A stretch of 23,464 bases of DNA from Candidatus Micrarchaeota archaeon (GCA_964496415.1 CAZBZN010000010.1:1-23464); one strand, 5' to 3'. Positions 6,928 to 23,464 are shown, counted from the stretch's first letter. The notes: generated by a model from the sequence alone, not told the origin. A program made the numbers and translations.

Positions 6928-7140
6928 TTAACTTTTGGCTTCTTCTATTGCTTTGTTTAGTGCTTTTAGCAGTTCTTCTACTTGGATTCCATGAGCAGCT
7001 GCTCCTTGTTCTACTGTTTCAAACTGAGCTGCAGCGCATCCAATGCAGTGAACTCCGAAATCCAGAAACACTGGGATGGTTTCAGGGTGTTCTCTTATAA
7101 CTTTAACTATTAAGTCGTCTTTTTTTATCACATCTGACAT
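6928..7140 (-). CDS. DUF1858 / hybrid-cluster-protein-associated redox disulfide domain protein
   Basis: HPET..VF..FGVHCIGC..A..ETVEQGA.AHG pattern; AGGTGA SD. Confidence 0.88.
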   Translation of the reverse strand: MSDVIKKDDLIVKVIREHPETIPVFLDFGVHCIGCAAAQFETVEQGAAAHGIQVEELLKALNKAIEEAKS

Positions 7141-7150
7141 GTTTTCACCT

Positions 7151-8329
7151 TCATAATTTTTTAAGAATGTCTTTTACGTCAAGGATTTTCAGGGTTTTTG
7201 ACTTGTACTTGATGTTTTTCTTGGTTGGCACGATTAAAATCTTTTCACATGGAAACTTGTTTAATTTTTCTTCAGTCTTTTTTATTTCTTCTTTGCTTAT
7301 TTTATTTTTCCATTTGACTTCTCCAACTAGTTTCAGTTTGTTAAAGTCTCCTAGGACGATGTCAACTTCTAGGTTTGGTTTTGATATCATGAATTCTCTC
7401 TTGTTTAAGACCTTGGCTAATAAAGTTCTAAAAAATGCTTCTGTATGTTTTGGTAGTTTTTCTTTGAAGTACTTTTTATCAAGGTCTGTTTCTGAAAAGT
7501 TGTATTTTTCATCAAGGTAGTAGTAGAGGTCTATCATAGGTGATTCAATAAAGTAATAATACTTGTTTTTATAGTAATCTTTTGTTCTTTTTATAAGGCC
7601 TATTTGAATCAGGTTCTTTAAGTATTGTTTTATCATGCTTGTGTCTTGTTTTTTTATTAATCCTAAAGAATACAAGTACGCAACTATTTCTGAAAGGTTG
7701 TTTTTACCGCATGCTATTGCTCTTAGGATGCCTTCATATCTTGCTGATAGGTTTTTTTCTTCTTCTTCAAAAATTTCTCCCACTAATGCTGGGACAGTTA
7801 ATTTTAAAGCATTTAAGTCTAATTCTCCTTTGAAGAATCTTAATAAAAGCGGTTCTCTTAAGTAAACACAGTTTTCTATTAACTTCTTACCTTCATATTT
7901 GTTTTTCAAGTTCCTTATTATGTCTCTTTCGTCTATCAAATTCATCTTGAATTCAAGAAACAAGCCAAGGATAGGAGAGTTGCTGCTAATTAATTTCTTA
8001 GCTAAGTTTAAAGTTGAAGTGACAAGTATTATGTTTTTAGGTTGTTTTATGTGTAAGTATTCTAAAAATTCATCCCCAAGCCTATGGAACTCGTCAACTA
8101 TTACTGTTTTTTTAGTATCGTCTATTATCCTTATTAGTTCTTTGAGATTTATGTTTTCTTTTCTTCTTTCGTAGTATATGCTTTTGTCTTTTCTTACAAA
8201 GAAATACTCTCCATTCTTGAACATGCGTTTAATTAGGAAAGTTTTTCCTGTTTTTCTCCTGCCATACACAAGCAAAGGAAGTCCTAAGCTTTTAATTTTC
8301 TTTTCATCAACAAATCTTTCTATAATCAT
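7151..8329 (-). CDS. Archaeal ATPase (ATPase_2-like) with wHTH and C-terminal DUF234-like PD-(D/E)xK nuclease domain
   Basis: Walker A YGRRKTGKT, Walker B IVDEFH, SPILG, and C-terminal EVDIV...VGEVKW. Start ATG 8329 is 24 nt after a minus-strand TTTAATAA. Confidence 0.87.
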   Translation of the reverse strand: MIIERFVDEKKIKSLGLPLLVYGRRKTGKTFLIKRMFKNGEYFFVRKDKSIYYERRKENINLKELIRIIDDTKKTVIVDEFHRLGDEFLEYLHIKQPKNIILVTSTLNLAKKLISSNSPILGLFLEFKMNLIDERDIIRNLKNKYEGKKLIENCVYLREPLLLRFFKGELDLNALKLTVPALVGEIFEEEEKNLSARYEGILRAIACGKNNLSEIVAYLYSLGLIKKQDTSMIKQYLKNLIQIGLIKRTKDYYKNKYYYFIESPMIDLYYYLDEKYNFSETDLDKKYFKEKLPKHTEAFFRTLLAKVLNKREFMISKPNLEVDIVLGDFNKLKLVGEVKWKNKISKEEIKKTEEKLNKFPCEKILIVPTKKNIKYKSKTLKILDVKDILKKL

Positions 8330-8367
8330 AGTTATAGTAATCACAGTTATACTTATTAAACTTTTCG
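8320..8367 (-). promoter_or_regulatory. BRE/TATA promoter of the ATPase-nuclease with a tandem 14-bp repeat over the start site
   Basis: Minus strand CGAAAAG TTTAATAA (8353-8367). TAATCAYAGTTATA at 8323-8336 and 8338-8351 (15-bp period). Confidence 0.65.
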
Positions 8368-8441: not shown

Positions 8442-9578
8442 TTATGATAGTTTTCTTAGGTTTTCAACGCTTTCCTTAATAGCTCTTTCAGTGTATTCTA
8501 TGTCTTCTTGTTTAGTGTGTCTTCCTATGGTTATTCTCAACGAACCATGGGCTTTTTCAGGAGGCAGTCCTACTGCTGTCAAAACATGCGACGGTTTAAG
8601 TTCATGAGAACTGCACGCACTTCCAGTGCTTGCAGCTACTCCTTTTTCATCTAAAAGCATTACTAATGCTTCTCCTTCTATGAAGTCAAACCCAAAATTA
8701 GCGTTGTTTGGAAGTCTTTTTTCAGCATGCCCATTCAACCAGGAATCAGGAATTTCAAGAACCTTTTTTATTAGCTCGTCTCTTAGTTTTTCTTCTCTTT
8801 TGCTTTCTTCTTCCATTTTTTCAAAGCTGATCTCAGCTGCCTTTGCAAGCCCTACTATTCCTGGAATGTTTTCAGTTGAGCTTCTAAGTCCTCTTTCATG
8901 ACCCCCTCCATGAAAAAGAGGAGTAATCTTTACTCCTTCACGCACGTAAAGAAAGCCTGCTCCTTTCGGACCGTAGATTTTATGACCTGATACGCTCATC
9001 AAGTCAACGAACTCTAAGTTTATTGGGATTTTTCCAAAAGACTGCACTGCATCAGTGTGGAAGTAAACTCCTTTCTCATGAGTGATTCTTGAAAGTTCCC
9101 TTAAGTCTTGAATCGTTCCTATTTCATTGTTTGCATGCATTATTGAAACAAGTATTGTGTCGTCTCTTATTGCTTTTTCAAGGTCTGTTGGGTCAACCAA
9201 CCCGTCTTTGTCAACAGGCAAGTAAGTTACTTCAAAACCTTGTGATTCAAGCCACTTGCATACGTTTAAAACTGCATGATGCTCAATACTTGAAGTAATT
9301 ATGTGTTTTCCTTTTTCTTTGTTAGCAAAAGCCACTCCTTTGATAGCAATATTGTTTGATTCTGTTCCTCCTGAAGTAAAACATATCTCCCCAGGTTCTA
9401 CTTTAATGAGTTCTGCTATTTTTTCTCTTGAGTCTTCTAGTGCTTTGCTTGCTTCCCTGCCCCATTCGTGAAGGGATGAGGCATTACCAAACTTCTGTGA
9501 AAAATAGGGTTTCATGGCTTCTAAGACTTCAGGGTCAACTGGTGTTGTAGCAGCATAATCTAAGTAAATTTTTTTCAT
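8442..9578 (-). CDS. iscS: Cysteine desulfurase, group I (NifS/IscS)
   Basis: YLDYAATTP, TSGGTESNN, HTDAVQ, PLP-lysine motif SGHKIYGPKG and catalytic STGSACSS. Confidence 0.96.
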   Translation of the reverse strand: MKKIYLDYAATTPVDPEVLEAMKPYFSQKFGNASSLHEWGREASKALEDSREKIAELIKVEPGEICFTSGGTESNNIAIKGVAFANKEKGKHIITSSIEHHAVLNVCKWLESQGFEVTYLPVDKDGLVDPTDLEKAIRDDTILVSIMHANNEIGTIQDLRELSRITHEKGVYFHTDAVQSFGKIPINLEFVDLMSVSGHKIYGPKGAGFLYVREGVKITPLFHGGGHERGLRSSTENIPGIVGLAKAAEISFEKMEEESKREEKLRDELIKKVLEIPDSWLNGHAEKRLPNNANFGFDFIEGEALVMLLDEKGVAASTGSACSSHELKPSHVLTAVGLPPEKAHGSLRITIGRHTKQEDIEYTERAIKESVENLRKLS

Positions 9579-9590
9579 CTCATCACCTTT

Positions 9591-9902
9591 TCAGTTACAC
9601 TTGTCATGGCTTCCTATCTTCTTGCATAATTCGCAGTAGTTTACTTTTTTACCTTTGATTATTTTTTCAGCAGCTGCTTTTATCACTCTTTTAGTGTTTG
9701 GTTTTTTCAGAAGTTCTTTTGCTTTTTTCCCTCTTGCTTGTTTTAAGTATCTTGATATTGCTGGTTGGGTTGTCCCAAGAACTTCTGCTATTTGTTTTTG
9801 AGTGTATTTTTTTGATAATTCTTTAGCTAACAAGGCTCTTATGCTTGGAAGTATTTCTTTTACAGCGATTTCGCAGTAAGCAGTAGTTATTCTTGGTTTC
9901 AT
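9591..9902 (-). CDS. Small XRE-like HTH transcriptional regulator with Cys-rich C-terminus (resembles COG2522)
   Basis: CE.AVK..LP.IR..LA.EL; HTH TQKQIAEVLGTTQPAISRYL...RG; C-terminal CELC-x5-H-x2-C. ATG 9902 follows a GTGA SD; the gene ends 12 bp upstream of iscS. Confidence 0.85.
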   Translation of the reverse strand: MKPRITTAYCEIAVKEILPSIRALLAKELSKKYTQKQIAEVLGTTQPAISRYLKQARGKKAKELLKKPNTKRVIKAAAEKIIKGKKVNYCELCKKIGSHDKCN

Positions 9903-9921
9903 TTCAATCACACAAAATAAT

Positions 9922-9958
9922 ATACCACTGGTATTATTATACCTATGATATTTTTAAA
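9922..9958 (-). promoter_or_regulatory. Promoter of the regulator-iscS operon with palindromic operator(s) ATACCA-N-TGGTAT
   Basis: Minus-strand TATA TTTAAAAA (9951-9958). Perfect ATACCACTGGTAT at 9922-9934 and a 2-mismatch copy ATACCTATGATAT at 9939-9951. Confidence 0.75.
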
Positions 9959-10032
9959 GGCTTTGGGTTTTGTTTAAAAGTTTAAAAACAAGACTTGAAT
10001 AATTAGTTTTAACAAGCACGTGGGCGAGTAAA

Positions 10033-12537
10033 GTGACCTATAAAGTGAAAGGACTTACTGAAGCTGAGGCAAAAAGAAGGCTAAGCGTTTATGGTAAAAA
10101 CGAAATTGTTGAAGAGAAAAAAGAAAGCACTTTGAAGATGTTTTTATCGCAGTTCACGTCTCCTATTATTCTTCTTTTGCTGTTTGCTGCAGTGCTTTCA
10201 GGCTTGACAGGTTATTTTAAAGGAGGAAATTACTTTGACAGCATGCTGATTGTTACCATAGTTTTTGCAGCTGGGATAGCTGGTTTTATTCAAGACTATA
10301 AGGCTGAAAAAACAGTTGAGGAGTTGAAGAAATTAGCTACTCCAAAAGCAAAAGTAATAAGAGAAGGTAAGGAAAAAGTGATTGATTCTACTGAAATCGT
10401 TCCAGGGGATATTGTTGTAGTTGAAGCTGGGGACGTGATTCCAGCTGACGGGGTGATTATTAAAGGTTTTCTTGAACTTGATGAGTCAATGATGACAGGA
10501 GAGTCAAAAGCAGTAAAGAAAAAAGTCAAAGATGAAGTTTTTTCAGGAGCAAGTGTTTATACAGGAGAAGCTTTGATAAAAGTAACTCTTACTGGAATGA
10601 ATACAAAGATGGGACAGCTTGCTTTGAAAATGCAGGAAATTAAAAGGGAAAGCACTCCTTTTCAAGAGGATATGAAAAAATTCACTAAAAAAATAGTAAG
10701 TTTTACTTTGATTGTAATTTTTATAACTTTCTTAGCTGGAGTTAGGAAATTTGGCTTTATAGAAGCATTACTAATAGCTGTCTCGCTAGCAGTAGCTGCT
10801 GTGCCTGAAGACCTGCCGGCAGTGATTACTATCGCGCTTTCTCTTGGAGCAAGAGAAATGGCAAAAGTAAAAGCTTTAGTTAGAAGGCTTGCTGTTGCTG
10901 AGTCAATTGGAAGAGTTGACGTGATATGTACTGACAAGACAGGGACTATAACAGAAGGAAAAATGAAAGTAATTGACAAATGGTTTTTAAGCAGTAAGAA
11001 AAGTTCTCAAACTCGTGAGAGTGAATTGTTTCTAAAAGTTTGTTATTATTGTAATGACGCTGAAAAAGTCATTAACCAATCAAAAGAGGAATGGGTTGGT
11101 GATGAGACAGACATTGCTTTGATGAGGTATGCTTTTGGAAAGATAAAACCTCTGGGAAAAAGAATTGATGAAGTTCCATTTGATTCTAAAAGGAAAATGA
11201 TGACAGTAGTGCATAAAATTGGCTCTGGGAAGTTTGTGTTTTCAAAAGGAGCTCCTGAAGTAATAATCAAGAAATGCTCTAAAGCAATAGTTGATGGGAA
11301 AATAGTAAAGCTGAACGACAAATTAAAGAAATCAATTATTTACAAGAACGATGAGTTATCTTCAAAAGGATTTAGAGTTTTGGCTTTGGCTTATAAAGAA
11401 CTTAAACGCAAGGAGGATTATGAGAAAAACCTGACATTCATAGGGTTAATAGTTTTGTCTGATCCTCTAAGGCCTGAAGTTCCAGAAGCAGTGGAAGAAT
11501 GCTACAAGGCAGGGATTAGGATAATAATGATAACAGGGGATAATCCAAAAACAGCTTTGGAAATCGCTAGAGAAGCAGGAATAATGACTGAAGGAGTAGT
11601 CATTGGTGAAGAAATAGAAAAAATGAATGATGAAGAACTAGAGAGTATCCTTTCAAAAGGAGTTAATGTTTTTGCTAGGACAAATCCTTTCCATAAGCTA
11701 CGGCTTCTTGAAATTTTGAAACGCAAAGGCCACATAGTAGCAATGACTGGGGATGGAGTCAATGATTCCCTTGCATTAAAAAAAGCAGACGTGGGAATAG
11801 CAATGGGAATAAAAGGAACTCAGGTTGCTAAAGAAGCAAGTGACATAATCTTATTAGATGATAACTTTTCAAGCATTAGAAATGCTGTAAAACAAGGAAG
11901 AAGAATCTTTGACAACATCAGAAAATTTGTTGATTATTTATTTACTTGTAATATTGCAGAAGTAACGGTGGTGTTGTTAGCAACTCTCTTCCTGCCTTTT
12001 ATATCACTTTATCCTGTGCAGATTCTTTGGATTAACCTGATAACCGACGGGCTTCCTGCCTTAGCTTTGTCAGTTGACCCACCGCGGCCTGATGTTATGA
12101 AAAGAAAGCCAAGAAAGAAAACAGAGGGAATAATAAACAAAAAACTTGCAATGCTGATCGCGGGAATAGGGGTTAAAAAATCATTAGTTGTATTAGGTAC
12201 TTTCTTAGCAGTGCTTCCATTAGGAATTGAAAAAGCAAGAACAACATTGTTTACTGCTTTCATAATGTACGAGTTCGTAAGGATAGCAGTGATAAGATAC
12301 AATGAAAAACTAACCTCATTAAAGGACTGGTTTGCAAACAAGTTCCTAATTTATTCTCTGGCAGCATCTTTTGGACTGCAACTGATGATATTATATTCTC
12401 CTCTTTCAAAATTCTTTAAAATAGTTCCTTTAGGAGTTTACGAGTGGGGAGTCCTGATAGCTGGAACAATAATAGGCTTTGCTCTTGGAATACTCATTGC
12501 AATGGCAGTTGATTATGTTTCAAAACAAGAATACTGA
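10033..12537 (+). CDS. Cation-transporting P-type ATPase, type IIA (Ca2+-ATPase-like)
   Basis: TGES, CTDKTGT, KGAPE, MITGD, TGDGVND, TM5 CNIAE and TM6 QILWINLITDGLPALAL. Confidence 0.94.
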   Translation: MTYKVKGLTEAEAKRRLSVYGKNEIVEEKKESTLKMFLSQFTSPIILLLLFAAVLSGLTGYFKGGNYFDSMLIVTIVFAAGIAGFIQDYKAEKTVEELKKLATPKAKVIREGKEKVIDSTEIVPGDIVVVEAGDVIPADGVIIKGFLELDESMMTGESKAVKKKVKDEVFSGASVYTGEALIKVTLTGMNTKMGQLALKMQEIKRESTPFQEDMKKFTKKIVSFTLIVIFITFLAGVRKFGFIEALLIAVSLAVAAVPEDLPAVITIALSLGAREMAKVKALVRRLAVAESIGRVDVICTDKTGTITEGKMKVIDKWFLSSKKSSQTRESELFLKVCYYCNDAEKVINQSKEEWVGDETDIALMRYAFGKIKPLGKRIDEVPFDSKRKMMTVVHKIGSGKFVFSKGAPEVIIKKCSKAIVDGKIVKLNDKLKKSIIYKNDELSSKGFRVLALAYKELKRKEDYEKNLTFIGLIVLSDPLRPEVPEAVEECYKAGIRIIMITGDNPKTALEIAREAGIMTEGVVIGEEIEKMNDEELESILSKGVNVFARTNPFHKLRLLEILKRKGHIVAMTGDGVNDSLALKKADVGIAMGIKGTQVAKEASDIILLDDNFSSIRNAVKQGRRIFDNIRKFVDYLFTCNIAEVTVVLLATLFLPFISLYPVQILWINLITDGLPALALSVDPPRPDVMKRKPRKKTEGIINKKLAMLIAGIGVKKSLVVLGTFLAVLPLGIEKARTTLFTAFIMYEFVRIAVIRYNEKLTSLKDWFANKFLIYSLAASFGLQLMILYSPLSKFFKIVPLGVYEWGVLIAGTIIGFALGILIAMAVDYVSKQEY

Positions 12538-12548
12538 GGTGAGTTAAG

Positions 12549-12737
12549 ATGAATAAAAAAATCATTGGAATAGGATTAGCTTTTGTAGTTTTGGGTTTTG
12601 TATTGGAAAGCATTAAGTTTGCTTTTGCTAAGACAAAAGCAGAGTTAAAAGCAACAGCAGTTTCTTTTGGAATACCTGATGCATTAATCGTTCTTGGATT
12701 ACTGTTAGTAATTGCCACATTTTTCATTAAAAAATAA
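12549..12737 (+). CDS. Small membrane protein with two hydrophobic segments (62 aa)
   Basis: Strong SD GAGGTGA (12536-12542) overlapping the ATPase stop; two hydrophobic stretches with basic ends. Confidence 0.7.
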   Translation: MNKKIIGIGLAFVVLGFVLESIKFAFAKTKAELKATAVSFGIPDALIVLGLLLVIATFFIKK

Positions 12738-12770
12738 GATGACTCTTTGTTCCTTGATCATTTTTTGGTA

Positions 12771-14210
12771 TTAGTTTGAACCATACTTGTATTTTTCATA
12801 CTTGGTGTTTTCGATAAGTTTGTCTGCTATTATGCATCCAGGGTCTGGTCCTAAAGGATCTCCTGTGTACGCGTACGCCCTTGCCCTGCATCCTCCGCAC
12901 ACATACTTGTAAGGACAATTGCTTGCAAAATGCTGCGAAGAATCCCTGTCTCTAAATTTATTAAACAGCTCATTATTTTTCCATACATTCACGAACCCGT
13001 CTCTAAGCACGTTTCCTACTTTGATTGGCATGAACACGCAAGGGTAAATATCTCCATTATGGTCTATTGCACAATAACACCTTCCAGCACCGCATCCTCC
13101 TACAAATTCAGCAAGAGCCAACGCATTTGCATAGTTCCCCTCTAAAGATATGTCTCCAAAATGAGCTAAAGAAACATGCTTTCCTTCTTTTTTCATTACT
13201 TTTTCCATGCTTATACGAGCATAAGTAGGGCTTGTTGAAAAAACTTTTAATCCTCCTTTTTCAAGTTCTGAGTACAAGTACTTCATTAGTTTTTCTCTTT
13301 CATCAGGGCTTAAGTCAAGTTCTTGGATTTGTTTTCCTCTTCCAACAGGAACAAAATTAAAGAACATCATCGTGCAGACGCCAACGTCTCTTGCAAGTTT
13401 TATCATTTCTGGAACTTTACTAACATTTTGACTTGTAACAGTGTAAGCTATTCCAGTGCACATTCCGGCGTTTTTAGCATTTTTTACTCCTTGCAATGCT
13501 TTCTTCCATGCTCCTTTTACTCCTCTAAAAGCATCATGTTCTTTAGCATTAGGAGAGTCAATGCTTACTTCAACATACTGTACTCCTGCTTCTTTCATTT
13601 TTTCAGCTATCTTAGGAGTAATGAGAGTTCCATTAGTAGCAACATTTACATAAATTCCTTTATCAGCAGCGTATTTAAATATTTCAAAAATGTCAGGAGT
13701 AAGCAAAGGCTCTCCTCCTGAAAAAGCAATTGAAACTACTCCTGCTTCTTCAAGCTGGTCTATTACTTTTTTCTTTTCTTCTGTTGAAAGTTCGTCAGGA
13801 GCGCCAGCAGGACTTGCATTAGCATAACAGTGCTTGCATTTTAAATTGCATTTTTTAGTCACATTCCATACCACGAGGAAAGGAGCAACAAGACGCTGCG
13901 GTTTAGTAACCCCATATTCTGCTATTGACCTAACAGTAGTGACAAGCCCCTTTCTATAATAAGGATTCTTAAATGTCTCTACAAATGTTTCTTTGCTTCC
14001 ACCAAAAGCCTTTACTCCTTTGTTAACAGCAAAGCCAACTATCTTTGAATTAATTAATTCTCCGATTCCATGCGGTTTTCTTTCCCCTACAACTATATCA
14101 AGAGCTTTTTCAAGCCTTTCTTTCTTAGCAAAATGCTTTAAAACAATCCTCGCAGCAGGGTTTTCAAACAATCTTTTAATATACACTCCAGCATTCTGAA
14201 GTTCAGGCAT
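12771..14210 (-). CDS. Radical SAM / SPASM domain protein (PqqE/NirJ/Ahb-like superfamily) with N-terminal extension
   Basis: WNVTKKCNLKCKHCY, FSGGEPL, ATNG, and SPASM CGAG...GDIYPC...C-x5-CGGCRARAY...DPGC. Confidence 0.93.
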   Translation of the reverse strand: MPELQNAGVYIKRLFENPAARIVLKHFAKKERLEKALDIVVGERKPHGIGELINSKIVGFAVNKGVKAFGGSKETFVETFKNPYYRKGLVTTVRSIAEYGVTKPQRLVAPFLVVWNVTKKCNLKCKHCYANASPAGAPDELSTEEKKKVIDQLEEAGVVSIAFSGGEPLLTPDIFEIFKYAADKGIYVNVATNGTLITPKIAEKMKEAGVQYVEVSIDSPNAKEHDAFRGVKGAWKKALQGVKNAKNAGMCTGIAYTVTSQNVSKVPEMIKLARDVGVCTMMFFNFVPVGRGKQIQELDLSPDEREKLMKYLYSELEKGGLKVFSTSPTYARISMEKVMKKEGKHVSLAHFGDISLEGNYANALALAEFVGGCGAGRCYCAIDHNGDIYPCVFMPIKVGNVLRDGFVNVWKNNELFNKFRDRDSSQHFASNCPYKYVCGGCRARAYAYTGDPLGPDPGCIIADKLIENTKYEKYKYGSN

Positions 14211-14274
14211 TTAACTCACTTCCTTTCAATTTATTTGCATTTCTATTAATTTATATTTTGGCGCCTCTTATAAC

Positions 14275-15315
14275 TTACTTTTTAAACAATGTCCCATGAT
14301 AAGTATGTATTGCTGTTTTTGTTAAAGTAACAAACCAAAAGATAGCTAAAAGCAAGTACAAGCTAAACCCAATATAGTCAATTAAAGTGATTTTGAATAA
14401 TGATGATAAATTATGACTTGCTGCTACATACGCGCCAAGAGGGAAAGTAAAAGCCCACCAGGACATGGCATAAGGAAGTTTTATTTTTCTTATGTAGTGT
14501 AAAGTCATTATAAGAGCCATTATAACCCACCATATTCCAAACCCCCAAAGCAAGAGCCCAAACACGAAAAAAGGTTCTTTTATAGTTATGAATGGCGAAT
14601 TTTTAACTAAGTTAATTAATGCTGTTGTTCCAACCCCAATTGGTCCAAGATTTATCCATATTGTTGGAGCAAGAATACTTGGCAGGGGATGATGAAGGAT
14701 GAACCTATATAATGATATTGCTAGTAAAGCTAAGTAAAGAAAGAATCCTGCACCCCATCCAAAATAATTTAAGAAAATAACAATTTCTTTGGTCACTCCT
14801 GAAAAGTAGGGTATGATTAAACTTCCTGAAGTTGGAATTACTATCAACCCTACAGGGGGTATGAACCACGCTGGGTTTATGTGTTCTAATTTAACATCCT
14901 CTTTTTTAAACATTAAGTAAGGTGTTATTATACTAAAACAAACAGTAAATATTGCTCCTATAAACCAAAAAATTTCTCCAGCTATGATATCTTTTTTGAT
15001 TATGATAAAATTAGTTGCTAAAACAAGAATTCCTATTGCTATAGTAGCATAAAAGTTTGAAAGTATAGGATGTTTTAAGTCAGCTAGTGCTTCTTTTTTA
15101 TAAAATATCCATCTAAGAGTCCAGGGTATTAATAAAATGAAAAACAGGAAGATATTGAAATAAAACAAAACATATGCTAAGTTTTTCAAAAAGCTGAAGT
15201 ATTGTGAATAAGCAAGGCTTGTTATAGCAAAGATTCCAGTACCCATAATAACTGCAAACCATGAGGGCGTGAAATTTTTGATAATCTGACACTTACACTC
15301 AATTTCCTCTAACAT
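14275..15315 (-). CDS. TDT/SLAC1 family anion transporter
   Basis: FTPSWFAVIMGTG, PAWFIPPV and WWAFTFPLG; many transmembrane segments. ATG 15315 follows GTGA (alternative start GTG 15324). Confidence 0.9.
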   Translation of the reverse strand: MLEEIECKCQIIKNFTPSWFAVIMGTGIFAITSLAYSQYFSFLKNLAYVLFYFNIFLFFILLIPWTLRWIFYKKEALADLKHPILSNFYATIAIGILVLATNFIIIKKDIIAGEIFWFIGAIFTVCFSIITPYLMFKKEDVKLEHINPAWFIPPVGLIVIPTSGSLIIPYFSGVTKEIVIFLNYFGWGAGFFLYLALLAISLYRFILHHPLPSILAPTIWINLGPIGVGTTALINLVKNSPFITIKEPFFVFGLLLWGFGIWWVIMALIMTLHYIRKIKLPYAMSWWAFTFPLGAYVAASHNLSSLFKITLIDYIGFSLYLLLAIFWFVTLTKTAIHTYHGTLFKK

Positions 15316-15378
15316 AGAAATCACATTAAAAATTAGATGAGAACATCATTTAAAGTTTTTGTTTTACACTTTAATACT

Positions 15379-16104
15379 TTATTCTAAGGCTTTTATCATT
15401 ATTATGAAGCTTATTCCTGCGAGGAATGCGAGCATGTTAAGCATTGACCTGCGCAGGTTTTTTTCTTTATGAAGCTCTGGAATCAAGTCAGAGGAAGCAA
15501 TGTATAAGAACCCTCCTGCTGCAAAGGGAATTAACGAGAAGAACCATGAAGCGTTCTTAAGTAGGAATCCTATTATTCCTCCAATAATGCAAGTTGTTTG
15601 TGACAAAAAGTTGAACTTAAGTGCTTTCTTTTTGGAAAAACCTGAGTAGACGAGTACTGCGAAGTCCCCTAGTTCTTGAGGGATTTCATGGCCAATGATT
15701 AAAAGGGTAGTGATTATTCCAAAAGGAACGCTTATTAAAAAACTAACTGCTATTATCAAGCCGTCTATGAAGTTATGCACTCCATCCCCTAATAGGATTA
15801 AGTAAGACACTGGATGAACTTCACATTTTGGTTCATGGCAATGATGCCAGTGAAGGATTCTTTCAATAAAAAAGAATAACACGAACCCAAAAATCATCAC
15901 TGCAAAAGAATAAAAAGAAGAAAAATGCTCAAGGCTTTCTGAAAGCAAGTGAAAGAACGCTCCTGCTAAGAGGCCGCCTGCGGAAAAAGCAACCAAAGCC
16001 ATCAGCAACTTTTCAAATACTCTTTTCTTCAAAAAGAGGGTAATAACTCCTATTAAAGCTACGAGACTGTCAATAATGGTTGCAAGCAGGATCCACGCGA
16101 GCAT
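15379..16104 (-). CDS. ZIP family metal transporter
   Basis: AFSAGGLL, His loop HWHHCHEPKCEVH, GDGVHNFIDG, HEIPQELGDF and DLIPELH. ATG 16104 follows GTGA. Confidence 0.93.
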   Translation of the reverse strand: MLAWILLATIIDSLVALIGVITLFLKKRVFEKLLMALVAFSAGGLLAGAFFHLLSESLEHFSSFYSFAVMIFGFVLFFFIERILHWHHCHEPKCEVHPVSYLILLGDGVHNFIDGLIIAVSFLISVPFGIITTLLIIGHEIPQELGDFAVLVYSGFSKKKALKFNFLSQTTCIIGGIIGFLLKNASWFFSLIPFAAGGFLYIASSDLIPELHKEKNLRRSMLNMLAFLAGISFIIMIKALE

Positions 16105-16116
16105 GATTTTCACTTT

Positions 16117-16135
16117 TTGCAATGATGCATTGTAA
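16117..16135. promoter_or_regulatory. Candidate palindromic operator upstream of the ZIP gene
   Basis: TTGCAATG ATG CATTGTAA (8-3-8, one mismatch), between a minus-strand TTAAGTAA box and the SD. Confidence 0.45.
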
Positions 16136-16214
16136 GATTACTTAACTTTACGTAAAAGGTATTAATAAATAATCTGAAAAAGTTAAAAGATAAAAGAGGG
16201 TTGGAAGTGATTGA

Positions 16215-16919
16215 ATGAGAAGGATTCTTGTCATGAGTGGAAAGGGAGGAGTTGGGAAAACAACAGTAGCTGTAAATCTTGCAGTAAAGCTTTCTGAAAA
16301 GTATAAGGTTGGCTTGCTTGATATTGACATTCATGGCCCTAATGTTCCTAAAATGCTTGGCTTAGAAGGAAAAACATTAGAAGAAAAAGATGGAAAGATA
16401 AAGCCAGTTAATTACAATAATAACCTTAAAGTAGTGTCCGTAGGCTTCATGCTTAAAGAACAGTCAATCCCTATAATCTGGAGAGGTCCTTTAAAACATA
16501 AGCTGGTGAGTCAGTTTCTTAATGATGTTGAATGGGGTGACTTGGATTACTTTATTGTTGACTTGCCTCCTGGAACAGGGGATGAAGTCATAAGCATCAC
16601 GCAGTTGATTACAAAACCAGCAGAAGCAGTAATAGTTTCAACACCACAAGAAGTAGCTTTGCTTGACGTGAGAAAAGCAATTAATTTCGCAAGACGGCTA
16701 GGACTTGAAATAGACGGAGTAATAGAAAACATGACCAGTGAAGTTTTTGGAACAGGTAATGTTGAAAAAGTTGCAGAAGAAGAAGGAATTCCTTTTCTTG
16801 GAAAAATACCTTTACATAAGAAAATATCACAGTCAGGTGACTCTGGAAAGCCTTTTGTTAATGACAAAGAATTCAAAGAATTTGCTGAAATAGTTGAGAA
16901 AATAGAAAAAATAAAATAG
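16215..16919 (+). CDS. mrp: Mrp/ApbC/NBP35-family P-loop ATPase lacking the CxxC motif
   Basis: SGKGGVGKT, DIDIHGPN, WRGP, WGDLD...DLPPGTGD, STPQ and ENM. Confidence 0.92.
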   Translation: MRRILVMSGKGGVGKTTVAVNLAVKLSEKYKVGLLDIDIHGPNVPKMLGLEGKTLEEKDGKIKPVNYNNNLKVVSVGFMLKEQSIPIIWRGPLKHKLVSQFLNDVEWGDLDYFIVDLPPGTGDEVISITQLITKPAEAVIVSTPQEVALLDVRKAINFARRLGLEIDGVIENMTSEVFGTGNVEKVAEEEGIPFLGKIPLHKKISQSGDSGKPFVNDKEFKEFAEIVEKIEKIK

Positions 16920-16925
16920 CAACTG

Positions 16926-17885
16926 TTATTTTAGTATTCCTTTTACTATGAAGTCTATTGCTTGTTCTTCTGAAAGCCCTCTGCTCATAAGAGTTTCAAT
17001 TTCTTTTTTATTAATCCTGCCTATTGATGCTTCATGAGTAATCCGCGCAAGAGGATGGTTTACTGCAATTTTAGGCACTGCTTCTGCTTTTGCCTTGTCT
17101 CCTTGTACTATTTCATGACAGTCAACGTGCCCTCTTGTGTTTGCAGCGTTTCCTATTATCTCTCCAAGAACCTTAGCAGAGGAATTTTCAGTTAGGACTA
17201 TCCTGCTTTTTGCAGTTCCGCTTGCATTCTCTCCATCCAAATAAAGGGATTCTTTTATTATTATCTTATCATCTTTTTTCCCATACGCTTTTGTTATAAG
17301 ATTGCATGTGCTTGACTTTTCTTGCTTTACTTCATAGTCAAGGTCAAGAAATCCAACTTTTCCTTTTACTATTTTGAACTCATCTTCAAGAACTGCTTTT
17401 TCCTCAAGCACTGCTCTTAACTTAGGTTTAACTATAACATGCCCTTCTTCAGGATGAAAATGTTCCTCAAAATATTCTACTTTCGCGTTTTTCTTTACTT
17501 TCATGTCAAACTCCATCACGTGCTCTATGTCTTTTGCATTTGGAAACATGCAATGAGATAAAAAACTCACTTTAGAGTTTTTGCCTATCACAAAACTTGA
17601 CTTTATCACTTGTCTTCCTTTTTCGGGAGTCATTCCAAAACACAAATGAACAGGATTTTCTATCACCACGTTATCTTCAACAATCACTTTAACTTTTACT
17701 CCTTCTTCAAAACTCTCCAAATTTATTTTTATTCCTTCCACTTCTGTTTTTCCAAGCACCTTATTACCATTCACTACAGCACTTGCAGTAGTTTTTTGAA
17801 GTAAATCTAACAAATTAGCTCCTGTTGAAGAATAAACTCTTACTATTTCTTCGTATTCTTTTGAATAATCAAAACCATCAGCCAT
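16926..17885 (-). CDS. sufB: SufB/SufD-family Fe-S scaffold (SmsB-type, short form)
   Basis: PVHLCFG, RGHVDCHEI, P.I.V.HP.ARITHEASIG and LMSRGL. Overlaps the sufC stop. Confidence 0.9.
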   Translation of the reverse strand: MADGFDYSKEYEEIVRVYSSTGANLLDLLQKTTASAVVNGNKVLGKTEVEGIKINLESFEEGVKVKVIVEDNVVIENPVHLCFGMTPEKGRQVIKSSFVIGKNSKVSFLSHCMFPNAKDIEHVMEFDMKVKKNAKVEYFEEHFHPEEGHVIVKPKLRAVLEEKAVLEDEFKIVKGKVGFLDLDYEVKQEKSSTCNLITKAYGKKDDKIIIKESLYLDGENASGTAKSRIVLTENSSAKVLGEIIGNAANTRGHVDCHEIVQGDKAKAEAVPKIAVNHPLARITHEASIGRINKKEIETLMSRGLSEEQAIDFIVKGILK

Positions 17886-18606
17886 TAAGCTTCTCCTCTC
17901 TTATTTTTCCAACATGCAAGCACTTTGAACAGTTTTCTCTGAAAAAACTTGCTACATTCTCAGGCTTATCTTGTTTGATAATTTTTCCTTCACACATTAA
18001 AGAAACCACGTCACCTATTTCAGCCATTTTTTCATTATGAGTTATCAAAAGCACTGAAGTACCCTGCTTTTTGAAGTCCTTTATGATCTTTTTAATTACT
18101 TCAATAAAAGCAAGGTCTATTCCTGAGTCAGGCTCGTCTAAAATCACTAGTTCAGGATTCATTCCCATAACTGACGCTAGTTCTATTCTTTTCCTTTCCC
18201 CACCACTGAGGTTATCGTCAACATTTCTTTCAAGATATTGTTCAGGGTTAAGCCCTACTTTTTTCAGCAGTTCTTCTGGCTTGACTTTACTGTTTATTGA
18301 CAAGTAATCACGTACTGTTATTCCTTCAAAAACAGCAGGATTTTGCCATGCTAAAGTTATTCCTTCTTCAGCTCTCTTATTAATAGGATAACTAGTGATG
18401 TCCTTTCCTTTGAAAATTATTCTCCCTTCATTTGGTTCATACCCATATAACCCCATTATAACTGCTGCCAGCGTAGTCTTACCAGTTCCGTTGACTCCTA
18501 TCACTGAATGAATTTCTCCTTTCATGACCTGAAGGTTTACTCCTTTCAAAATCTCTTTTTCTTTTGAACTATAATAAACGTTTTTAACTTCTAACAAAAC
18601 CTGCAA
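17878..18606 (-). CDS. sufC: SufC-family ABC ATPase (SmsC-type, with C-terminal cysteines)
   Basis: GVNGTGKTT, AWQNP, LSGGERKRIE, ILDEPDSGID, LITH, SLMCEG and terminal CSKC. TTG start with GAGGGG SD. Confidence 0.92.
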   Translation of the reverse strand: MQVLLEVKNVYYSSKEKEILKGVNLQVMKGEIHSVIGVNGTGKTTLAAVIMGLYGYEPNEGRIIFKGKDITSYPINKRAEEGITLAWQNPAVFEGITVRDYLSINSKVKPEELLKKVGLNPEQYLERNVDDNLSGGERKRIELASVMGMNPELVILDEPDSGIDLAFIEVIKKIIKDFKKQGTSVLLITHNEKMAEIGDVVSLMCEGKIIKQDKPENVASFFRENCSKCLHVGKIREEKLNG

Positions 18607-18638
18607 TTGCCTTCCCCTCTTACTTCAAAGCCATAATT

Positions 18639-18659
18639 ATACCAGTGGTATTATTTAAA
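18639..18659 (-). promoter_or_regulatory. smsCB promoter with operator ATACCA-N-TGGTAT abutting the TATA box
   Basis: Minus-strand TTTAAATA (18652-18659) immediately followed by the palindrome ATACCAGTGGTAT (18639-18651, plus strand). Confidence 0.75.
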
Positions 18660-19434: not shown

Positions 19435-19463
19435 ATATGGCAAATGCGTATAGTCAAACCTTA

Positions 19464-21071
19464 ATGGGTTTTCAATTATTTGATAAAGAGATAAGTGGTC
19501 CTTTTACAATCCCATCGGGTGTTATGGTAACAAAGCCCAGCATGATCAGACGACTTTTTGAAATACCAGAGATAGGAATCGTCACTACAAAAAGCATTAG
19601 TTTTCATAAAAAACAAGGTAACAGAGAGCCTATAATCGCTGAGTATGGTTTTGGGTCTTTTATTAATGCTGTTGGTCTTGAAAATCCAGGCGCAGTAGAG
19701 TTTGCTAAACAACTCAAAAAAATAAAAATACCTGATGACAGGTTTTTGCTAGCATCAGTATTCGGGCGTGATGAGAAAGAGTTTGCGTTGGCATGTGAGG
19801 AGCTTTTGAACTACGTTGACGGATTTGAGTTAAACATTTCTTGCCCTCATTCAACAGAGTACGGCTTAAGCATTGGAAAAGACTTAGCGCTTGTTAAAAA
19901 AATAGTTGAAAAAGTTTCTTCATTGCAAAAACCAGTATTCGTGAAGCTGCCTCCAACAGTAGACGTAGAAGCAACAGTCACAGTATCTATGAAGGCAGGA
20001 GCTCGCGGCATCACTGCGATTAACTCAGAAGGCCCAAAGCTTTCTCCTTCCTATGAAGGAATACCTATCCTTTTTAACAAGTTTGGAGGAGTTTCAGGAA
20101 AAGCTATCCTAGACCTTGGTGTCAGCGTAGTAAAGAAAGTGAGGAGGGTCACACGAGCTCCAATAATAGCCTGCGGCGGCATATCAACGGCAAGAGATGT
20201 GTTAAGATATTCCAAAGCAGGAGCTAATTTTTATGGGATAGGATCAGCCCTAGCAGGAATGAAACATGCTGAAGTGAAAGAATATTTCCATGCTCTTTAT
20301 GAAGATGTGGTAAATGGAACTAACAATGCAGAGTCATATTTGAAGAAAAACTTGAGGATGAGTTACGAAAAGTTTAAAGTCGAGCATAGGAGACTACTGG
20401 CAAATGATTTGTTTATAATACAAACAGATAAAAGCATTAAAGCAGAGCCAGGGCAGTTTGTTTTTGTAATGTTGCCTGGGATTGGGGAAAAACCATTCTC
20501 AGTATTAGATGATGAACCACTTTCTTTGCTTGTCAAAATAAGAGGAAAGTTTACGAAAGCTTTACATTCACTAAAAAAAGGAGATCACATATACGTCAGA
20601 GGGCCCTATGGTAACTCCCTGAACATTAGCAAGAGTGACTCACTCCTTTTGGTTGGGGGCGGAACAGGAATAGCAGCGTTATACCTCTTCGCAAAAAGAA
20701 ACAATCATGCCGTTGCTGTCTTAGGCGCTTCAGACTATTCTCACTTGGCTTACGTTGACGAGTTTGAAAAGGAATGTCAGGAGGTATATAAGGTAACGGA
20801 AACCGGGGAAATAGGAGTGAAAGGCTTAGTGACAGATTTGCTTGATGACGTAATTGAAAAACATGATCCTAAATATTGCATAAACTGCGGTCCAGAGCCA
20901 ATGGTTAGGCAGGCAATTAAAAAAGAGAGCAAAACAGTCCCTTTAGAGAGGATATACTCTTCTATAGAAATGATTACAAAATGTGGGATAGGATTATGCG
21001 GCAGTTGCGTTACTTCACAAGGTTATAGGAGCTGTGTTGATGGAACGTTTTTTAACCCGCAGGATTTGTAA
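19464..21071 (+). CDS. pyrD: Fused dihydroorotate dehydrogenase family 1B: PyrD catalytic domain plus PyrK electron-transfer domain
   Basis: N-half: VTTKS, NAVGLENPG, ELNISCPH, FVKL, GGVSG, CGGI. C-half: PGQFV, KPFS, RGPYGN, VGGGTGIA, CGPEPM, CGIGLCGSC..SCVDG. Start ATG 19464 (26 nt after TTTTATAT) or 19437. Confidence 0.88.
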   Translation: MGFQLFDKEISGPFTIPSGVMVTKPSMIRRLFEIPEIGIVTTKSISFHKKQGNREPIIAEYGFGSFINAVGLENPGAVEFAKQLKKIKIPDDRFLLASVFGRDEKEFALACEELLNYVDGFELNISCPHSTEYGLSIGKDLALVKKIVEKVSSLQKPVFVKLPPTVDVEATVTVSMKAGARGITAINSEGPKLSPSYEGIPILFNKFGGVSGKAILDLGVSVVKKVRRVTRAPIIACGGISTARDVLRYSKAGANFYGIGSALAGMKHAEVKEYFHALYEDVVNGTNNAESYLKKNLRMSYEKFKVEHRRLLANDLFIIQTDKSIKAEPGQFVFVMLPGIGEKPFSVLDDEPLSLLVKIRGKFTKALHSLKKGDHIYVRGPYGNSLNISKSDSLLLVGGGTGIAALYLFAKRNNHAVAVLGASDYSHLAYVDEFEKECQEVYKVTETGEIGVKGLVTDLLDDVIEKHDPKYCINCGPEPMVRQAIKKESKTVPLERIYSSIEMITKCGIGLCGSCVTSQGYRSCVDGTFFNPQDL

Positions 21072-22438: not shown

Positions 22439-22825
22439 ATGGAGAAAAGGTATTTCGCGTTGAGAACATCTAAAAATGGTAGAGAAATAGCAGTGTTCAC
22501 TGGAAAACAACCAAGACAAGCAGCTTTAAAAGCAGCAAGCAGAGGCTACAAAGAAATTTACTTAAGAGAAAGAGGAACAAAAAAGCTTCACTACTTCAAA
22601 GGCACTAGGAAAAAAGTAAGAGCTCCTGCTGACAGACCAGACTGGATGCCAGAAGTAGTATGGAAGCCAAACGTCAGAAAAGTAGGGGTAATCCACTTAG
22701 AAAAGCCAAAGAAAAAAGCAGTAAAGAAAAAAGCTAAAAAGAAAAAGGCAAAGAAAAAGAAAGCTGCAAAAAGAAAAACCAAAAAGAAGAAAGCTAAAAA
22801 GAAAGCCAAGAGAAGACGCAGATGA
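22439..22825 (+). CDS. mc1: Non-histone chromosomal protein MC1 with Lys/Ala-rich C-terminal tail
   Basis: Hallmark VFTGKQPRQAALKAA.RG...LRERGTKK.H.F...AP..RP.WMP....KP.V.K. Confidence 0.94.
   Translation: MEKRYFALRTSKNGREIAVFTGKQPRQAALKAASRGYKEIYLRERGTKKLHYFKGTRKKVRAPADRPDWMPEVVWKPNVRKVGVIHLEKPKKKAVKKKAKKKKAKKKKAAKRKTKKKKAKKKAKRRRR

Positions 22826-23187: not shown

Positions 23188-23464
<277 letters not shown>

Follow-up and report, generated by a model that had tools for sequence, protein, structure and literature searches.

A candidate sulfur and iron-sulfur regulon in a Micrarchaeota archaeon: a small helix-turn-helix protein and a palindrome at the iscS and smsCB promoters

In a 23,464-nucleotide stretch of DNA from Candidatus Micrarchaeota archaeon (GCA_964496415.1, CAZBZN010000010.1; hereafter the window), two nearly identical palindromes lie at the promoters of two gene sets, one beginning with a gene for a 103-amino-acid helix-turn-helix (HTH) protein (the regulator) followed by iscS for a cysteine desulfurase, and the other consisting of the iron-sulfur (Fe-S) assembly genes smsC and smsB. 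It makes up contig C10 of an archaeal assembly of 687,403 bp that is 91% complete (G000); other G-numbers denote the genomes compared with it. The feature is real, and represents a lineage-specific variant of an archaeal sulfur and Fe-S regulon that itself is apparently undescribed. In the explanation that we favour, the regulator would bind both palindromes as a homodimer, thereby acting as an autorepressor, and would block both gene sets when the supply of sulfur or Fe-S is sufficient; the signal would most likely be carried by an Fe-S cluster on Cys10, Glu11, Cys90, and Cys93. Taken as a whole, this explanation is tentative and stands at slightly less than an even chance.

Two palindromes at the regulator-iscS and smsCB promoters

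The initial annotation of this DNA had pointed to two near-identical 18-mers at 9921-9938 and 18638-18655, and these were found as described, 8.7 kb from each other and with 17 of the 18 positions identical. The difference is the central base of their cores, ATACCACTGGTAT and ATACCAGTGGTAT. Promoter coordinates (Table 1) also placed one next to the regulator-iscS TATA box and the other next to that of smsC-smsB, in agreement with what had been claimed. The strong operator of the regulator-iscS promoter has its centre approximately 30 bp past the first TATA-box T, at the putative start site (near 9928) as placed by the TATA-to-start-site spacing rule; the start site of smsCB is predicted near 18629. 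A weaker second copy, said to touch the TATA box, was indeed located 17 bp from the strong copy and overlaps the last base (9951) of TTTAAAAA; its position resembles that of the smsC copy, the distance from the first TATA-box T to its start being 7 bp, compared with 8 bp at smsC.

Exact matches in the window were confined to the two cores, in line with the initial annotation, in which the motif was not seen in other intergenic regions. With up to two mismatches, 4 matches were found, against a mean of 0.56 in shuffled sequences, and 0 of 100 shuffles reached 4. A genome-wide scan, which the annotation had proposed as a check, detected ATACCA[C/G]TGGTAT exactly twice in the assembly and at no unrelated locus, where 0.013-0.078 exact matches were expected (Markov order 0-5); the assembly also holds 2 one-mismatch and 28 two-mismatch sites, with the weak copy at 9939-9951 among the 28. 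Furthermore, when a matrix was built from six sites of the relatives G001, G003, and G004, leaving the window sites out of training, both window sites scored 17.1 bits and were the top two genome-wide (91 matches at ≥9 bits, 12 of them intergenic). The view that a conserved operator, one that goes with the regulator family, stands here in repressor-type positions is supported.

The next-best intergenic matches in G000 are two weaker candidates: C37:1613 (15.0 bits) is flanked by glycosyltransferase-like genes, and C6:2823 (13.9 bits) lies 71 bp before a radical-SAM activase-like gene. C12:1110, considered as a third site, was rejected at only 6.0 bits. No site was found in G000 before thiI, ttuA, thiF, cysS, rubrerythrin, or mrp. 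A metagenome pattern scan returned one contig, whose protein and promoter are identical to those of the window and which is thus not independent.

The regulator family, its predicted operator, and its predicted targets

Using a family profile built from 29 sequences, the regulator family (ThiN fusions included) was detected in 184 of 301 archaeal genomes, with 1,836 representatives at E ≤ 1e-10; source names of homologues include Thermococcales, Archaeoglobaceae, and Nitrososphaeria. The family is presumably the one labelled COG2522, with its arCOG counterpart. Among the matches listed, with 97 further matches beyond them, 106 loci of 97 genomes were sampled, comprising the genomes of the class to which the window belongs and the top and middle of the 184-genome result. 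De novo palindrome search in these 106 promoters (120 bp upstream) yielded TATAAC-RNY-GTTATA, with a log-likelihood of 222-240 at widths 13, 15, and 17 and of 129 at width 14, compared with 26-40 for three shuffles. Sites of at least 12 bits occurred in 39 of the 106 regulator promoters, in 6 of 169 neighbouring upstream regions, and in 0.5% of 2,120 shuffles; the neighbouring regions are the fairer control, because the matrix was trained on the same regulator promoters.

The genes within two positions of the regulator at these loci point to sulfur metabolism: cysteine desulfurase (21 loci), IscU (12), CysK (12), CysE (8), ThiI (6), a Cys/Met pyridoxal-phosphate enzyme (5), TtuA (4), CysRS (3), and SufB (3), while feoB adjoins the regulator at 2. 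In total, 51 of the 106 loci have a sulfur or Fe-S neighbour by automated labels, which counted one mislabelled ABC protein and missed the iscS of G007.

The pattern WTAACRSYGTTAW gave 162 matches in 40 regulator-positive genomes, compared with 59 for the reversed pattern, and 109 versus 57 when G080 and G196 were left out; this excess is inflated, because many of the 40 genomes were picked for having a local site. In 24 genomes in which no regulator was found, 13 matches were obtained versus 24 for the reversed pattern; 11 of the 13 fall within coding sequence, and no match stands ahead of a sulfur gene. Among the matches listed for 28 regulator-positive genomes (174 further rows stand beyond these), 79 of 91 sites are intergenic, as against 2 of the 13 in the genomes where the regulator was not found. 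Away from the regulator gene, exact sites precede sulfur or Fe-S genes in 12 genomes: desulfurase genes in G088, G149, G178 (two), G203, G232 (two), G257, and G292. In G167 and G309 the gene is of the cysK type, in G196 it is an iscU-sufT fusion, and in G008 it is sufT-like, while G186 has sites before thi4 and before a gene of homocysteine synthesis. The proposal of an Fe-S biogenesis regulon is thus borne out in part, in that distant iscS, sufS, iscU, and sufT genes carry the footprint, but the targets are wider than Fe-S: since cysK, cysE, O-acetylhomoserine/O-acetylserine (OAH/OAS) sulfhydrylase, thiI, ttuA, and cysS are among them, the predicted regulon is one of sulfur supply and not only of Fe-S assembly.

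In two genomes the motif is far more frequent, occurring 40 times in G080 and 13 times in G196 (control 1 in each), almost always in intergenic regions, and a possible reading is that it has there expanded into a global regulon. Genes that it precedes in G080 (L232, L258-L280) and G196 (L281-L291) include those for DinB polymerase, TrmB, and an Lhr-like helicase, as well as nrdR, mevalonate genes, and a second paralogue of the regulator. The motif is also linked to replication and repair genes, standing upstream of cdc6/orc1 in three genomes (G160 L297, G178 L230, G239 L242), of an Lhr-like helicase gene in three (G035 L292, G080 L268, G160 L295), and of nrdR-type genes in two (G080 L271, G196 L289).

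A residue of the predicted recognition helix that tracks the operator

At position 51 (S-x-Y), 93 of 139 scored homologues carry Gln and 5 carry Arg. Position 4 of the half-site is A with Gln51 in 68 of 82 half-sites and C with Arg51 in 12 of 14, the latter from four Arg proteins; both counts were made with two variable columns masked. In Thermococcales, an Arg-type group (S-R-Y, lacking the N-terminal Cys and CxxC) showed a 14-bp site beside the TATA box in 14 of 14 inspected promoters; these sites end in GTCAT, and 13 of the 14 begin with ATTCC or ATACC. In a FastTree tree of 127 columns, in which many forks are open, the two Arg groups form separate branches, with local support of 98 and 98 and three state changes. 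When P0060 was used to look for a third Arg lineage, one of the Cys type, 1 of 87 genomes matched, and the protein was Gln-type. A Gln-to-Arg change in the predicted recognition helix tracks a change of operator from ATAAC to AT(A/T/G)CC, repeated in the Thermococcales clade, although this co-variation amounts to two events and is not statistical proof.

The Thermococcales subfamily without N-terminal Cys and CxxC has a 14-bp site of the ATGAC-N4-GTCAT type before its own gene, hcp, DUF438, fprA, and a ferritin-like gene (L024, L033, L157, L166, L172, L308-L316, L326-L338), a candidate oxidative- or nitrosative-stress regulon.

The regulator protein and its conserved cysteines

The regulator carries a Cro/C1-type HTH at residues 30-56, Cys10-Glu11, C90-x2-C93, H99, and C102, and Arg51 falls in its predicted recognition helix. 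Its earlier description as XRE-like held, as Pfam HTH_3 matched with 24 bits against a cut-off of 23, a narrow pass, and 10 of the 10 best Atlas families agreed. An AlphaFold model (predicted local distance difference test, pLDDT, 77.5; predicted template-modelling score, pTM, 0.67) is all-helical and has an HTH without a wing; in it, Cys10 starts helix 7-29, C90 and C93 start helix 89-101, and the recognition helix spans residues 46-53. An N-terminal Cys with C-x2-C-x5-H-x2-C had been noted in this protein of about 103 residues; the length and the cysteines are present, but the ligand set drawn from them was wrong, because C-x2-C-x5-H occurs in 3 of 143 homologues and His99 is not conserved. 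By contrast, the N-terminal Cys and CxxC were found at 90 of 106 loci and in 126 of 143 representatives, and Glu follows the N-terminal Cys in 87 of the 90, which gives Cys10-Glu11 plus C90-x2-C93 as the conserved set. Sixteen of the 90 proteins have these three cysteines and no others, which would not suffice for an intramolecular Zn-Cys4 site. A second motif, C-x2-H..C-x2-C, is present in 88 of 143 homologues and is reduced to C102 in the window protein.

No Rrf2 model was found among 15 Pfam matches (E ≤ 0.01) or 7 NCBIfam matches of the regulator, nor among the best 25 of 46 families for its alignment. PF10120 (ThiN) gave no match, and the open reading frame (ORF) ends at residue 103 and is followed by iscS. 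The regulator aligns over its full length to the N-domain (about 125 residues) of the HTH-ThiN protein P0057 (hhalign 99.8%, 124 columns), and Atlas structure neighbours also point to the HTH-ThiN N-domain. In both Thermococcales HTH-ThiN proteins examined, the N-terminal Cys and CxxC are lost. A solved homologue beyond the HTH was not found by sequence search, by Foldseek (none at E ≤ 0.001), or by VIA-align (best Z 5.2), which does not show a new fold. A single-protein search for similar loci returned only four short bacterial HTH matches and was not used. Three homologues of 226-257 residues (P0004, P0007, P0148) have two regulator-profile matches each and appear to be tandem fusions of regulator domains.

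Close relatives and the origin of the smsC site

The regulator was detected in 12 of 31 genomes of the class. iscS follows it in G000, G001, G003, G004, G007, G008, and G010, and it heads iscS-iscU in G001, G003, G004, G007, and G010; it is divergent from iscS in G018, G022, and G029, stands before sufC-sufS in G005, and is divergent from feoB in G020. The regulator promoters of G001, G003, and G004 have two good sites each, 16, 17, and 18 bp apart; the pair begins 7-8 bp from the first TATA-box T, and the TATA-proximal site is homologous to the decayed copy at 9939..9951. These three genomes have iscU, and no SufBD gene was found in their assemblies, which are 80-90% complete. In G000 itself, the iscS operon lacks iscU, and no iscU was found in the rest of this 91%-complete assembly.

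The smsC promoter aligns with the regulator promoters of the relatives through the TATA box, site 1, the spacer, and a decayed site 2. The strong smsC operator corresponds to site 1 of the relatives, and decayed site 2 lies 17 bp further on, whereas the G000 regulator promoter has the opposite pattern, site 2 being kept and site 1 decayed. The smsC promoter therefore looks like a copy of a regulator promoter, in a genome in which iscU was not found. A DUF72 gene adjoins smsC in G000; in G004 it is located upstream of the regulator, at a distance of about 0.9 kb. From the promoter alignment and this position of DUF72, we infer that a block was inserted between the regulator and DUF72 and that smsCB took the promoter copy. 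The block between the two operators (10033-18606: P-type ATPase, radical SAM/SPASM, TDT, ZIP transporter, mrp, smsCB) may be such an insertion; its GC content is not distinct.

G002 has smsCB, with no regulator, IscS-grade match, or site found; likewise, no site was found at the smsC promoters of G002, G009, and G024, which have a close SmsB and in which the regulator was not found. The smsCB or sufB genes of G007, G020, and G005 have upstream extensions without a promoter site.

The proposed mechanism and its alternatives

Direct binding of the palindromes by the regulator is highly probable, and a dimeric repressor is suggested because the sites are palindromic and stand at and just after the TATA box. 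Repression by covering the start-site region and the DNA just downstream of the TATA box is probable. It would operate under sufficiency, because the targets lie on the supply side of sulfur and Fe-S. The copied promoter would have placed SmsCB under the control that covers IscU in the relatives. A cluster is favoured as the signal because of the three Cys and a Glu, as in SufR; as thiol chemistry and structural zinc also fit, this part, given binding, is a leading but tentative choice, just short of evenly balanced.

Several findings weigh against this explanation. About 63% of regulator promoters have no 12-bit site within 150 bp, some of the genes being operon-internal, and many unrelated genes have the motif before them in G080 and G196. 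The correlation between Arg and C rests on two clades whose sites differ in length (14 versus 13 bp). The smsC link lacks a cross-species replicate, because smsB was not found in G001, G003, and G004, which share the operator variant. Footprinting at homologous loci, a check that the annotation had suggested, showed the motif recurring with the regulator across archaea, but a site directly before smsC in only 2 of the 12 regulator-positive genomes with adjacent smsC-smsB, namely, G000 and G038 (in the latter, smsC and the regulator diverge). Finally, all cysteines are kept in the ThiN fusion P0057 and in homologues of about 300 residues in G037, G060, and G273, and a structural metal site fits, because several HTH-ThiN fusions thus retain them.

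Among the alternatives, the same regulator, operator, and repression could respond to cysteine, sulfide, or persulfide through Cys modification or oxidation, or through zinc release, and so act in the manner of a repressor of cysteine metabolism; this is possible, although we consider it rather doubtful. cysK, cysE, OAH/OAS sulfhydrylase, thiI, ttuA, cysS, and a SepCysS-like enzyme need sulfur but build no clusters, and the rarity of feoB adjacency (2/106) also speaks for such a signal. Against it, IscS and IscU are the commonest neighbours, sufT, sufB, smsC, and mrp also occur, and the three Cys and Glu are the ligand set reported for SufR (bioRxiv 10.64898/2025.12.26.696629). Unlikely is a second alternative, in which the cysteines hold structural zinc in a ThiR-like DNA-binding module set by a partner protein or by its own level. 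The full-length homology to the HTH-ThiN N-domain with all cysteines kept, the zinc-type motif in 88 of 143 homologues, and the four cysteines kept in the window's family would agree with it, but the three-cysteine members (16/90) and the stand-alone members without another sensing domain would not, and the loss of the N-terminal Cys and CxxC from the two Thermococcales HTH-ThiN proteins examined is expected if ThiN replaces that sensor.

A third alternative accepts the regulator-iscS site and takes the smsC copy as a passive relic of promoter duplication at the 8.7-kb insertion, or as serving the divergent DUF72 gene. It would explain why the smsC promoter matches the relatives' regulator promoters column for column, why DUF72 lies near the regulator in G004, and why no distant site directly precedes smsC in any other genome examined. 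However, the palindrome abutting the smsC-oriented TATA box is still perfect, although decay has affected its second site and its flanks, a pattern suggestive of selection; the two copies have different central bases; and in G004 another gene precedes DUF72, which has no promoter site of its own, so that we regard this alternative as quite improbable. A last alternative, that the palindromes arose by chance or are recognized by some unrelated factor, is very hard to sustain. The family motif is widespread beyond sulfur genes in G080 and G196, but fewer than 0.1 matches per copy are expected by chance, the variant of the operator follows the recognition residue of the regulator, and no enrichment was seen in genomes where the regulator was not found.

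Genes and sites of the window

The features of both gene sets are collected in Table 1. The AAA-type ATPase gene occupies the place of iscU in the relatives, with a 98-bp gap and its own TATA-like box ahead of it, and membership of the DUF1858 gene in the regulon is uncertain. mrp was ruled out as a member of the smsCB operon by its + strand, convergent orientation, and lack of a site. Elsewhere in the window, 19437-21071 is a single 544-residue ORF in which dihydroorotate dehydrogenase is fused to its flavin adenine dinucleotide (FAD)/Fe-S electron-transfer subunit, 22439-22825 encodes an MC1 chromosomal protein with a long Lys/Arg tail, and the 5′ end of an archaeal 16S rRNA gene (23188-23464) closes the window.

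Table 1. Genes and putative control sites at the two promoters (window coordinates)
Feature	Position	Strand	Remarks
DUF1858/hybrid-cluster-associated small protein	6928..7140	-	Downstream of iscS and the AAA-type ATPase gene
AAA-type ATPase	7151..8344	-	Downstream of iscS
IscS/NifS-type cysteine desulfurase	8442..9578	-	TIGR03402 over cut-off; GSAC motif; iscU next in relatives, not here
Regulator, 103 amino acids	9591..9902	-	ATG at 9902; 106 amino acids if GTG at 9911 is the start
Strong operator ATACCA-S-TGGTAT, ATACCACTGGTAT	9922..9934		Regulator-iscS promoter; 26 bp before ATG
Decayed TATA-proximal operator copy	9939..9951		2 mismatches; 3.9 bits
Putative TATA-like box TTTAAAAA	9951..9958	-	Regulator-iscS promoter; from sequence
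mrp	16215..16919	+	Convergent with smsB; no operator site
SmsB, SufBD core, 319 amino acids	16926..17885	-	Best NCBIfam match SUF_like_SmsB, under its cut-off
SmsC, SufC-type ATPase	17878..18606	-	C-terminal Cys and CxxC (LMCEG...NCSKC)
Strong operator ATACCAGTGGTAT	18639..18651		Abuts smsC TATA box
Putative TATA-like box TTTAAATA	18652..18659	-	smsCB promoter; from sequence

Comparison with known systems and implications

IscR is an Rrf2-family [2Fe-2S] autorepressor of iscRSUA. The regulator resembles it in heading a desulfurase or scaffold operon, in having an operator at its own promoter, in its three cysteines, and in a second Fe-S locus in the predicted regulon. It differs in lacking an Rrf2 match, in its Cro/C1-type HTH modelled without a wing, in its operator, and in cysteines that are split between the N-terminus and a C-terminal CxxC. 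CymR, the Rrf2 repressor of cysteine metabolism in Bacillus, is controlled through CysK rather than through Cys ligands of its own. The regulator family shares with it targets such as cysK, cysE, and sulfhydrylases but not the fold family. The regulator would thus work like IscR or CymR and is not a member of either family.

SufR (COG2345), as described in bioRxiv 10.64898/2025.12.26.696629, is a repressor of Fe-S biogenesis with three Cys and a Glu as ligands, a larger winged HTH plus sensory domain, a GRP AT-hook, and a CAAC-N6-GTTG-type site, and has archaeal homologues before suf operons. In the regulator, C10-E11, C90, and C93 are conserved as candidate ligands, at a spacing different from that in SufR; it has 103 residues, no GRP in its sequence, and a 13-bp site. 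ThiR is an archaeal HTH-ThiN thiamine regulator (PMC10746257); the regulator has the same type of N-terminal HTH domain, but it lacks ThiN and its predicted targets are sulfur and Fe-S genes. In PMC12192291, the SMS system is an smsC-smsB operon with C-terminal SmsC cysteines whose sulfur source is left open, and a C-terminal Cys plus CxxC layout is reported as cluster ligands in M. jannaschii SmsC. G000 likewise has an smsC-smsB operon, a C-terminal Cys and CxxC in SmsC, and a desulfurase gene (MIS IscS/IscU-type). It differs from SMS and MIS in that one type of operator stands at both smsCB and a desulfurase gene for which no iscU partner was found.

The literature compared comprised parts of PMC10746257, PMC12192291, PMC7585200, PMC1274295, and the above preprint. 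Within these parts, no transcriptional regulator is named for SMS (PMC12192291) or for methanogen ISC, and the literature search found no description of the regulator family or its operator, the comparison lying outside the ThiR motifs, the archaeal-sites motifs of 2000, RegPrecise, and supplements.

A broader proposal joins these strands: the family would be a general archaeal counterpart of IscR and CymR, a cluster-sensing repressor on a ThiR-type scaffold that governs steps from cysteine synthesis to Fe-S assembly in several phyla, with a one-residue code (Gln: ATAAC; Arg: AT[ATG]CC) switched at least twice, and a copied promoter would have wired SmsCB in for a lost IscU, so that IscS would feed the SMS scaffold. 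That all of these parts hold together is speculative and, in our view, somewhat unlikely.

The control of Fe-S assembly and of cysteine supply is poorly described in most archaea, and the present analysis provides a family, an operator, and predicted targets. With homologues in Thermococcales, Archaeoglobaceae, and Nitrososphaeria by source names, hosts that can be grown in culture probably exist. Newly seen here are a Gln-to-Arg change paired with an operator change and an smsC promoter that resembles a copied regulator promoter. Finally, that smsCB and a desulfurase gene are predicted to be co-regulated where iscU is not detectable bears on the question of where the SMS system obtains its sulfur.

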